Positions 9,413 to 10,647 of a stretch of 12,090 nt of DNA are shown here, one piece after another; the first letter of the stretch is position 1, and every line of letters starts with the position of its first letter. The notes beneath the pieces were generated by a model, which saw nothing but the letters and a program-made list of their open reading frames with translations, was not told the origin of the DNA and did not search any database. This DNA is from a bacterium. Its GTDB lineage: Bacteria; Arandabacterota; Arandabacteria; Arandabacterales; JALGWA01. The position numbers were made by a program, and so were the translations under genes. The stretch lies in assembly GCA_050125095.1 (NCBI GenBank), contig JASFEA010000095.1, positions 1 through 12,090 on the forward strand. Direction: 5' to 3'.

Positions 9413-9769
9413 CTAAGGGCGGCAGGCGGGCCCGCTCAGTGACCCGGGGCAGCATCTATCTGCCGGGACACATGACCGCTCCTCGCACTCCCTTTCGCGG
9501 CCGCAAGAGCATTCCGCCGGCCTGGCGTTCCCCGTGGGACAGCGCTCTTCCGGCACGGCCTGAACCCTGCTCTCCGCGCAACATTCCCGGTCGGCATTAT
9601 CGTCCGGCGCGTTCTGCGCCTGCGATAGTGAGCAATGTTGTGCCGCGCAGCACGCCCGGCTGCTGTTTTGTTCATAAACGGCCTGGGCCGATGCGGGCAG
9701 GCCCAGGGCCATGAGCGCCATCGCGATGAGCAACGGCGTTATTACAAGTTTGCGTCGGAATCTTCTCAT
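9413..9769 (-). CDS. Exported Cys-rich small protein (metallothionein-like composition)
   Basis: AGGAGG SD (9780-9775) at 5 nt spacing from the ATG at 9769. Basic n-region MRRFRRK, hydrophobic core and ASAQA cleavage site. About 88-aa mature part with 13 Cys (CC x3, CxC). Followed by a terminator hairpin. Confidence 0.7.
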   Translation of the reverse strand: MRRFRRKLVITPLLIAMALMALGLPASAQAVYEQNSSRACCAAQHCSLSQAQNAPDDNADRECCAESRVQAVPEERCPTGNARPAECSCGRERECEERSCVPADRCCPGSLSGPACRP

Positions 9770-9855
9770 CATTACCTCCTCAATCAGGGGTTCGTATGCA
9801 ACTCATGCGCCGGCGCCGGCGGGAACGCGTCCGCCCCCGCCGAAAGCGCCCCGCG

Positions 9856-10044
9856 CTACTCCTTCTTGAGATCGTCAATGCGTTCGTTTATGCCTGCGAT
9901 CTCCTTCTCGAGCTGCTCCCTGTACTGCTCGAGTCTCTCGGCCTCCTCTTTGGAGGATACGAAGCGCCGGGCCACGTGCCCGGGCCCGCAGCAGCAACAG
10001 CCTGAAGCCCTCGAGGTCCTGGCGACATCGGGCTCGCAACACAT
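9856..10044 (-). CDS. 62-aa Cys-rich coiled-coil protein, homologous to the C-terminal tail of the adjacent ArsR
   Basis: MCCEPDVARTSRASGCCCCGPGHVARRFVSSKEEAERLEQYREQLEKEIAGINERIDDLKKE. GGGGGTG SD before the ATG at 10044, which is preferred over 10104. The coiled coil is reminiscent of DUF5320-type proteins (tentative). Confidence 0.8.
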   Translation of the reverse strand: MCCEPDVARTSRASGCCCCGPGHVARRFVSSKEEAERLEQYREQLEKEIAGINERIDDLKKE

Positions 10045-10113
10045 CTCATTCACCCCCTTTCTCGCGGCATGAGTGGTACCGGTACCTTGAATTCGCCGCC
10101 GCATCCGTTAAGC

Positions 10114-10139
10114 ATTTAAGCAGTAACTTAATAACTATA
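10114..10139. promoter_or_regulatory. Putative ArsR operator 2 (TTAAG-N6-CTTAA)
   Basis: Perfect inverted repeat TTAAG (10116-10120) CAGTAA CTTAA (10127-10131) in an AT-rich island; 18/26 identical to the site upstream of arsR. Confidence 0.6.
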
Positions 10140-10148
10140 TTAAAAAAA

Positions 10149-10580
10149 TTAAGCGCCCTTCTTCCGGGCCAGCTTCTTGATTCTCTCGTTTACGGCTTCG
10201 AGCTCTTTCTCCAGGCGCTTCCTGTATTGCTCCAGATCCTTGAGATTCGGCTCTCTTCGCCTCCTGACAAGCATACTGGGAGGGCGACAGGAGTCGCCGG
10301 GTCCGCAGGCGCAGACCTCGACCAGCCTTGTCTGGCAGCTTCGCATGGCGTCGACATCCACATGATAGGGTATTCTGTAACCATGGCGCTCGCTCCTCAC
10401 CAGACCCGCCTGCTTGAGCACTTTGAGGTGCTGGGACACGGCGGCGGGGGTAACGCCTACGATGATGGCGATCTTCTTGGCCCCCAGAGGTCCCTTTTTC
10501 TTGAGCGCCTCCAGGATCCTGACGCGGGTCCTCGCCGATAGGGCCTTGAACATGTCACAGCAGTCGTCGTTCACCTTCAT
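10149..10580 (-). CDS. ArsR/SmtB-family transcriptional regulator with C-terminal Cys motif and coiled-coil extension
   Basis: MFKALSARTRVRILEAL, HTH VTPAAVSQHLKVLKQAGLV and wing SERHGYRIPY. N-terminal CC, then C-terminal SC..VCACGPGDSC and a heptad tail LEQYRKRLEKELEAVNERIKKL. Confidence 0.93.
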   Translation of the reverse strand: MKVNDDCCDMFKALSARTRVRILEALKKKGPLGAKKIAIIVGVTPAAVSQHLKVLKQAGLVRSERHGYRIPYHVDVDAMRSCQTRLVEVCACGPGDSCRPPSMLVRRRREPNLKDLEQYRKRLEKELEAVNERIKKLARKKGA

Positions 10581-10603
10581 ATTGTCGGCCTTGTCTGATA
10601 TGT

Positions 10604-10647
10604 AGTTAAGTTATTACTAAAATACTATAATTGCCCCCGGATGTCAA
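10604..10647 (-). promoter_or_regulatory. Sigma70 promoter of arsR with overlapping putative operator 1
   Basis: Consensus TTGACA (10647-10642)-N17-TATTTT (10624-10619). TTAAG (10606-10610)-N6-CTAAA (10617-10621) overlaps the -10/+1 region, as expected for autorepression. Confidence 0.65.

Follow-up and report, generated by a model that had tools for sequence, protein, structure and literature searches.

In the present work, we examine two neighbouring genes in a 12,090-nucleotide stretch of bacterial DNA (contig JASFEA010000095.1 of assembly GCA_050125095.1, phylum Arandabacterota), hereafter called the window: arsR, which encodes a repressor of the ArsR/SmtB family, and downstream of it a small gene for a Cys-rich protein of 62 residues. 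We will show that the C-terminal module of the repressor has a free-standing homologue in the small protein, that the gene pair and its operator-like sites are conserved, and that repressor and product have a Cys triad in common. The reading that we favour, and to which we give an even chance, is that of a sensor of thiophilic metal(loid)s or thiols together with a dedicated Cys-rich binding protein that acts as a sink, comparable to the SmtB/SmtA pair. The elements of the local cluster are the following.

10580-10149, minus strand: arsR (P0001), ArsR/SmtB-family repressor of 143 residues
10287-10313, minus strand: Cys motif of ArsR, C90-A-C92-GPGDS-C98, at and just past the end of helix alpha5
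10155-10244, minus strand: C-terminal tail helix of ArsR (residues 113-142), homologue of the small-protein helix
10044-9856, minus strand: small gene (P0002), 62 residues, with a disordered Cys-rich N-terminus (MCC...CCCCGPG) and one long helix
10051-10057, minus strand: ribosome-binding site GGGGGTG of the small gene
10598-10621, minus strand: operator-like site 1, matching 12 of the 15 specified bases and following directly on the arsR promoter
10108-10131, minus strand: operator-like site 2, matching all 15 specified bases, in the intergenic region between arsR and the small gene
9772-9413, minus strand: third gene of the local cluster (P0003), 119 residues, with an N-terminal hydrophobic segment resembling a signal peptide

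The relationship between the two proteins is most easily seen in two stretches of 22 residues, LEQYRKRLEKELEAVNERIKKL in the ArsR tail (10170-10235) and LEQYREQLEKEIAGINERIDDL in the small protein (9868-9933). The counts given for them in the first-pass annotation of the window, 14 of 22 residues and 46 of 66 nucleotides in common, with different codons at eight of the 14 identical residues, were reproduced exactly on recounting, and 14 identities were reached in none of 100000 composition-preserving shuffles. BLASTP aligns the two proteins from the Cys motif to the C-terminus with 23 of 57 positions identical (E 6e-10). A profile built from 32 small-protein homologues was also run against all six frames of the whole genome (3.35 Mb, 91% complete), where it has just two matches, one to the small gene at E 1.9e-35 and one to the ArsR tail at E 4.6e-5. 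The resemblance is hence genuine and specific. The free-standing homologue of the repressor tail that the first-pass annotation had described is thus confirmed. The AlphaFold2 models of both proteins have the same order: a disordered Cys cluster comes first, and then a single long helix modelled with confidence.

The annotation had also taken the divergence to be old, and this holds. Identity between tail and small protein is 0.343 for cognate and 0.334 for non-cognate pairs (permutation p 0.15); as cognate pairs are no closer than non-cognate ones, there has been no recent duplication or gene conversion. Of the 22 tail/small pairs compared, that of the window has the highest identity (0.50). 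The description of the tail as basic and of the free copy as acidic fits the window, where the net charges of the helices are +2 and -3, but it does not apply generally, the tails of the 22 pairs ranging from -3 to +3. A word search with the tail by itself returned a single other cluster. The tail was most likely born when a copy of the small gene became fused to arsR, a direction that we infer.

The small protein belongs to a large family. A word-indexed search returned 32 clusters (90% identity). All full-length members begin in an MCCEP-like manner, and 62 residues is the exact length of 21 of the 31 other clusters; the start is therefore placed at the second ATG, giving 62 residues, and not at that of the 82-residue open reading frame. 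A profile search of 1.84 billion representatives extended this to 1086 clusters (50% identity) at E<=1e-3, 243 of them at E<=1e-10. For 147 further representatives the median length is 65 residues (90 or fewer in 143) and the median Cys content is five; CxC occurs in 122 of the 147, and at least four His in 39. No Pfam family cut-off is reached by the small protein. A search for longer forms of 150-2000 residues gave none, which is weak evidence, the 110-149-residue range of the ArsR fusions lying outside that search.

Within the family, the N-terminus is rich in Cys and His at poorly conserved positions, and conservation is high over the last 35 residues (RRFxSxxExxxxLExYxxxLxKExxGVxExIxxL); R26, L38, Y41, E48, G51 and E54 are invariant in the close set. 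The window protein has six Cys in its first 20 residues. In its AlphaFold2 model the helix at 31-61 has a predicted local distance difference test score (pLDDT) of 96-98, and residues 1-30 are of low confidence. Longer relatives of 102-117 residues with His/Cys-rich repeats were found at L054:803-1153 and in a 107-residue frame from L060:1424 (L numbers denote the loci surveyed below); the former has a Gly/Met/Arg-rich stretch ahead of the RRF-helix, and both look compositionally intermediate between the small-protein family and the DUF5320 family discussed at the end.

The first 80 residues of the repressor form an ordinary ArsR/SmtB winged-helix domain (Pfam HTH_5, PF01022, 48.5 bits against a cut-off of 22, residues 18-63; NCBIfam HTH_metalloreg, NF033788, 76.9 bits against 55). 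The AlphaFold2 monomer is predicted to have helices at 5-14, 16-29, 34-41, 45-57, 76-90 (alpha5) and 113-142 and a hairpin at 61-74, which corresponds to the alpha1-alpha5 fold with a C-terminal dimerisation helix. The linker 91-112 is of low confidence, and residues 111-140 have block-mean pLDDT values of 82-93. The closest solved relatives are the CadC-like Lmo1102, CzrA and SmtB. None of the solved ArsRs matches past profile position ~100, and no solved structure matches the 53-residue stretch round the Cys motif. In an alignment of 17 ArsRs, C82 and C90 are invariant and C92 is at least 90% conserved, with the family consensus V-C-[TS]-C-G-C at the end of alpha5. The N-terminal C7-C8 pair of the window protein occurs otherwise only in its nearest relatives.

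A metalloid site in an analogous location is described for AfArsR of Acidithiobacillus ferrooxidans, whose type 2 As(III) site is formed by Cys95, Cys96 and Cys102 at the ends of the C-terminal dimerisation helices (PMC11868830). The C90-x-C92-x5-C98 motif of the window ArsR lies at and after the predicted end of alpha5. The spacings differ, CxC-x5-C in the window and CxCxC in the family against CC-x5-C in AfArsR; furthermore, the invariant C82 and the terminal helix of ~30 residues are absent from the solved ArsRs that were matched, and there are no ars genes beside the window arsR. A second regulator with several Cys, ArsR2 of the hgcAB system in P. mercurii ND132, has Cys26, 47, 49, 86 and 88, and the accessible part of its description does not mention a tail helix; it looks like a member of another subfamily than the tail-bearing ArsR.

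We now consider how the cassette is conserved. A scan with one genome per species gave 24 loci with the small gene, from several bacterial phyla and archaea. An ArsR homologue stands upstream on the same strand in 17 of the 24, at a distance of 65-126 nucleotides in 15 of these, and about 1 kb off with one gene between in L009 and L020. All but one of the 17 repressors align through the tail, that of L025 ending after the Cys motif. The first-pass annotation had named, as an outcome that would speak against its reading, a free domain occurring mostly apart from tail-bearing ArsR genes; the domain is found mostly beside them (16 of the 24 species-level loci). Among 41 related genomes the small gene is present in nine, all of one class, and in the seven loci retrieved the upstream gene is an arsR every time and tail-bearing in six, these loci being in part the same records as L003-L005. 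The genes flanking the cassette are otherwise not conserved.

Seven of the 24 loci have no ArsR. Four are archaeal (L008, L010 with two copies, L015 and L017) and carry instead a divergent regulator of the HxlR family with an N-terminal C-L-C-P motif, assigned by Pfam in L017 and by BLASTP grouping with L017 in the other three. Genes for an ATP-binding cassette (ABC) ATPase and an ABC-2 permease follow downstream in L010, L015 and L017 but not in L008. In the other three loci (L013, L022 and L024) no regulator is visible.

The reverse survey, starting from the repressor, gives a different view of what is kept. A scan of metagenome contigs with an ArsR profile left 80 loci, and 20 of the 80 ArsRs have the coiled-coil tail. 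Tail-bearing ArsRs are not consistently followed by the free domain, a point that the first-pass annotation had put up for survey: a helix-bearing small protein follows in only five of the 20, and in 14 the partner is a helix-less peptide (in the remaining one the contig ends too early to judge). These peptides are encoded by open reading frames of 24-41 residues of the form M-A-[DE]-K-K-x-x-C-G-C-G-C with a Lys-rich tail, in a conserved Shine-Dalgarno context. ArsRs that combine the Cys motif with the coiled coil have a downstream Cys-containing small reading frame in 17 of 17 assessable cases. Seven more have the C-T-C-G-C motif without the helix, and six of these are followed by reading frames of 31-44 residues with CGCGC near the C-terminus; behind the seventh (L052) there is a CGCGC segment lacking an ATG. 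Counted over the assessable loci of this group, a downstream Cys-containing small reading frame is present in five of six, L052 being the exception. Among the ArsRs without the motif, of which 46 of 53 were assessable, a Cys-containing small reading frame follows in five and nothing in 41. The five comprise four His/Cys-rich helix-bearing small proteins and one probable chance CGC frame. Tail-less ArsRs with a helix-bearing small protein are found in L025, L054, L060, L068 and L074.

Repressor (C-[TS]-C-G-C) and product (C-G-C-G-C) space the Cys of their triads alike, as C-x-C-x-C, and the helix occurs on both partners, on either alone or on neither. As far as can be judged from these sequences, the constant feature of repressor and product is the C-x-C-x-C triad, and not the coiled coil.

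The short peptides form a class of their own. CGCGC or CDCGC peptides of 24-44 residues lie directly after Cys-motif ArsRs in L027-L035, L037-L040, L044 and L047-L053 (for example at L028:3014-3115). They are of two types, one with a Lys-rich C-terminal tail and the other with a Lys/Glu-rich N-terminal part and the motif near the C-terminus; a Shine-Dalgarno context is conserved in both. Routine gene calling may miss frames as short as these.

A candidate operator, TTAAG-N6-CTTAA-N3-CTTAA, lies directly after the arsR -10 element and again in the intergenic region between the two genes. The intergenic copy is perfect (15/15) in the window and in L003, L004, L005 and L007, and matches at least 13 of the 15 specified bases in 13 of 16 loci from several phyla; the copy upstream of arsR matches at least 11 of 15 in 11 of the 16. 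The arsR promoter has TTGACA at 10647 and a -10 element ending at 10619/10624, and no sigma-70-like promoter was called in the intergenic region of the window. In an IUPAC pattern search of the window genome, the sole perfect operator match is the site at 10108-10131, before the small gene. When up to two mismatches are allowed there are six matches, against one for the reversed-pattern control, and the extra matches have GC-rich spacers. With its only perfect site before the small gene, the repressor looks, from its putative binding motif, as though it had this gene, and perhaps P0003 too, as its whole regulon. Such a single-target regulon fits a sensor with a dedicated product, and would make little sense for a repressor of its own decoy alone.

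A run of six to eight T follows directly after the arsR stop codon (10142-10148 in the window) in all 16 intergenic regions. We have considered it as a terminator, but no stable hairpin precedes the run in any of ten loci (z-scores -1.15 to +1.52). Lying 10-15 nucleotides ahead of the operator, it may serve as a promoter spacer or bend the DNA.

There is also RNA-library coverage of the small gene. In two wetland metatranscriptome runs, contigs matching the window with 100% identity extend over 9778-10075 and over 9866-10075; P0003 is covered in part (9519-9669) by a third contig. This indicates presence in RNA libraries only, not transcript level or start, and the two runs may belong to one campaign; that no cover of arsR was seen in them carries no weight. 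Both small-gene contigs end at 10075, where a DNA contig continues to 10140; depth was ~2.7, and the shared end is a weak hint of a 5' end. The 5' leader of the small gene contains a self-complementary sequence, GGTACCGGTACC, at 10075-10086 (minus strand), which is kept in L003 while the flanks differ; the RNA contigs stop exactly at its downstream edge (10075).

In the mechanism that we favour, ArsR would bind TTAAG-N6-CTTAA-N3-CTTAA at the arsR promoter and ahead of the small gene. What it senses is most likely a thiophilic metal(loid), with As(III)/Sb(III), Hg(II), Cd/Pb and Cu(I) as examples, or else some other compound that reacts with thiols. This ligand would be bound by the Cys triad found where the alpha5 dimerisation helix ends, whereupon the repressor would leave the DNA. 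The 62-residue output protein would then bind the same ligand with its disordered Cys-rich N-terminus, and its C-terminal helix may oligomerise or dock, giving a sink of the metallothionein or chaperone kind. That sensor and sink should have the same ligand chemistry follows from the ancient homology of tail and small protein in Cys triad, linker and helix. Coordination by three thiolates is well suited to As(III)/Sb(III), Pb(II) and Hg(II).

Cassettes of a sensor and a sink, such as SmtB/SmtA, are textbook cases. The small, Cys/His-rich window protein has a composition like that of a metallothionein, which would fit such a role. The likeness to SmtB/SmtA, for which PMC4353254 is one source, lies in an ArsR/SmtB repressor with a dedicated Cys-rich output protein of ~60 residues beside it. 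The differences are that the window genes are arranged in tandem and not divergently, and that the window product matches no metallothionein family and has a conserved C-terminal helix. A further difference concerns the homology itself, since we know of no homologous module between repressor and product in SmtB/SmtA, unlike the window pair.

The neighbouring genes bear on the ligand. In L004, hgcA (445 bits) and hgcB (123 bits), both above the NCBIfam cut-offs, immediately precede the cassette and share its strand (L004:28-1451). An arsenite methyltransferase gene is found upstream in L008 (369 bits, cut-off 263), and an ArsM-like methyltransferase in L035 stays below the same cut-off (192 bits). 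P1B heavy-metal ATPases are encoded in L008 (upstream) and L009, and CopD-like proteins in L029, L031, L035 and L044, confirmed by Pfam in L044 only. ABC ATPase genes occur in nine loci and ABC-2 permease genes in six. The His-rich relatives suggest, by their composition, that other clades may bind harder metals. We have also seen that a gene of the acyl-CoA-dehydrogenase family adjoins or sits inside the cassette in L020, L033, L036, L041 and L074, with a fragment in L009; in L020 and L041 it lies between arsR and the small gene.

It is important to point out that several observations weigh against a metal(loid) sensor with a sink. The neighbours just listed indicate several different metals, and in many loci none; in the window's own genome (91% complete) neither hgcA nor acr3 was found, and among the Pfam and NCBIfam matches of the small protein there is no metallothionein family. 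HxlR regulators, the partners in archaea, are known as sensors of thiols and electrophiles rather than of metals. The invariant Y41, E48, G51 and E54 and the near-invariant RRF exceed the constraint expected of a generic oligomerisation helix, and this pattern of residues hints at a specific partner. Finally, DNA carry-over is possible in the RNA libraries that cover the small gene.

A more far-reaching proposal is that the family of more than 1000 clusters, in bacteria and archaea, consists of an undescribed kind of metal(loid)-binding microprotein, of ~65 residues, rich in Cys and His and with a coiled coil, that one ArsR lineage has captured a copy of its own target as a sensory and oligomerisation tail, and that a ligand-bridged feedback acts on the repressor. 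We consider this possible, at distinctly less than an even chance. If it is true, the triad and helix of the repressor would form a ligand-bridged assembly with the free module or with the CGCGC peptides, giving feedback at the protein level.

Nothing like the ArsR tail or the small-protein family was found in our searches of the open-access literature. What is new here is an ArsR subfamily whose C-x-C-x-C triad is followed by a terminal helix unmatched in the solved ArsRs, an unannotated Cys-rich microprotein family of 1086 clusters at 50% identity that lies outside Pfam, and the still smaller class of CGCGC peptides of 24-44 residues. With a homologous ligand-binding module in both partners, the cassette would be a neat natural example of a regulator made from a copy of its target, and the two-gene unit with its 24-bp operator is compact. 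The hosts of the cassette are uncultured anaerobes of sediments and wetlands, and since the cassette comes directly after hgcAB in L004, the identity of the ligand could bear on the handling of Hg, As and related elements.

We now turn to the alternatives. One of them, which the first-pass annotation had also raised, is a hand-off of ligand, in which the small protein would chaperone the metal(loid) to or from the repressor triad in a transient, metal-bridged complex. The product would then tune the response of its own repressor, and the ligand may pass on to exporters. We judge this unlikely, although the same C-x-C-x-C triad is always present on both partners and the small gene stands immediately before ABC-2 exporter genes in L010, L015, L017, L068 and L074. 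Most cassettes have no adjoining transporter, and the same data fit a plain sink, from which the hand-off is not separable. There is a precedent in Enterococcus, where the chaperone CopZ loads the C-terminal CxCx4CxC site of the repressor CopY. In E. hirae, this pair resembles the present one in having a winged-helix repressor with a C-terminal CxC metal site and a small partner for the same metal; it differs in that CopY is BlaI-like and not an ArsR, and that CopZ has a ferredoxin fold unrelated to the CopY tail.

Another option considered was a module for redox or thiol-reactive species, in which a disulfide or persulfide at CxC would switch the repressor and the small protein would be a sacrificial thiol buffer or scavenger. 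The archaeal small genes, paired with HxlR regulators that bear C-L-C-P, keep such a non-metal thiol-stress reading alive, and there are DsbD/thioredoxin genes beside L034 and a thioredoxin-like small reading frame beside both L034 and L035. Against it stand the neighbours with a clear substrate, which are metal(loid) genes, and the His-rich members (at least four His in 39 of the 147), which fit metal binding better. We regard a redox module as unlikely.

The remaining idea of the first-pass annotation, a decoy or anti-repressor, has the free module form a hetero-coiled coil with the ArsR tail and so alter oligomerisation or operator binding. A lone amphipathic helix of 31 residues must pair with something, and this one carries invariant non-core residues; the small protein has the putative oligomerisation helix of the repressor and no DNA-binding domain, and the window pair, the most alike of the 22, has helices of charge +2 and -3. 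The surveys speak otherwise, since 14 of the 20 tail-bearing ArsRs have helix-less CGCGC partners and helix-bearing small proteins stand beside five tail-less ArsRs and in four HxlR loci. With the helices aligned in register, their charges do not co-vary (rho -0.05, p 0.81). Being cognate does not make a pair more alike, and a repressor whose sole perfect operator precedes its own decoy would control nothing else. An apparent charge complementarity over the last 32 residues (rho -0.58, p 0.005) was discarded as an artefact of unregistered Lys-rich ends, the clade means giving rho 0.18. With the helix not kept on both partners (5/20 against 14/20) and no charge co-variation, coiled-coil hetero-oligomerisation as the point of the system is not supported, and we regard a decoy as quite unlikely.

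A prediction of the complex between the ArsR tail (residues 80-143, alignment of 17 rows) and the small protein (32 rows) scored 0.24 and 0.25, with the mark at 0.32, and counts neither way. In the Id/HLH proteins and the plant microProteins, the small protein is the protein-interaction module of a transcription factor alone. The window protein likewise appears to be the interaction module of ArsR freed of its DNA-binding domain, but in the ArsR-small cassette this module is not consistently present on both partners. Sharing or handing over of ligand fits better than coiled-coil pairing, because both partners always keep the Cys triad; the decoy is thus the less likely of the two ideas in the first-pass annotation.

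That the likeness of tail and small protein is merely convergent, a low-complexity or coiled-coil similarity with no common origin, is scarcely credible: coiled coils do inflate similarity scores and the small protein gives weak matches to unrelated coiled-coil families, but the Cys cluster, linker and terminal helix come in the same order in both proteins, the profile matches just two places in the genome, and the pairing recurs in 16 species-level loci from several phyla.

Regarding the surroundings of the cassette, P0003 has 12 Cys, three CC pairs among them, and reaches no Pfam family. Of the other loci, only L003 has a homologue, in the corresponding place (43% identity, E 3e-24); the gene is lineage-specific. 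Two further genes flank the local cluster.

12088-10676, minus strand: gene for a secreted beta-propeller protein with a sorting domain of the type IX secretion system (T9SS) type
9180-7501, minus strand: formiminotransferase-cyclodeaminase gene, after P0003

Among known families, only DUF5320 (PF17253) gives a consistent, if weak, match to the small protein. The scores, 16.3 bits for the 62-residue form and 17.8 bits for the 82-residue frame, stay below the cut-off of 27, and 15 of the 32 members have a sub-threshold match to the C-terminal end of DUF5320 (best E 1e-4). Against 12 canonical DUF5320 proteins, hhalign gives 92.8% probability (E 3.9e-7) over 33 columns that end at both C-termini, the C-terminal amphipathic helix is common to both, and the ESM Atlas neighbours of the small protein carry the name DUF5320. 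On the other hand, the N-terminal MPGxDGTGPxGxGP...G..C, invariant in the 12 canonical members, is absent from all 32 small proteins, and the Gly/Arg-rich middle is also missing. Literature titles indicate no function for DUF5320. In the window's own genome, a search with the DUF5320 family matches only contig C16, away from the window, where three tandem genes of the DUF5320 type (122, 88 and 70 residues; L120:932-1845) have an HdrA-like gene alongside; this locus is unrelated to the window, and its 70-residue protein has a Cys4 ribbon-like end.

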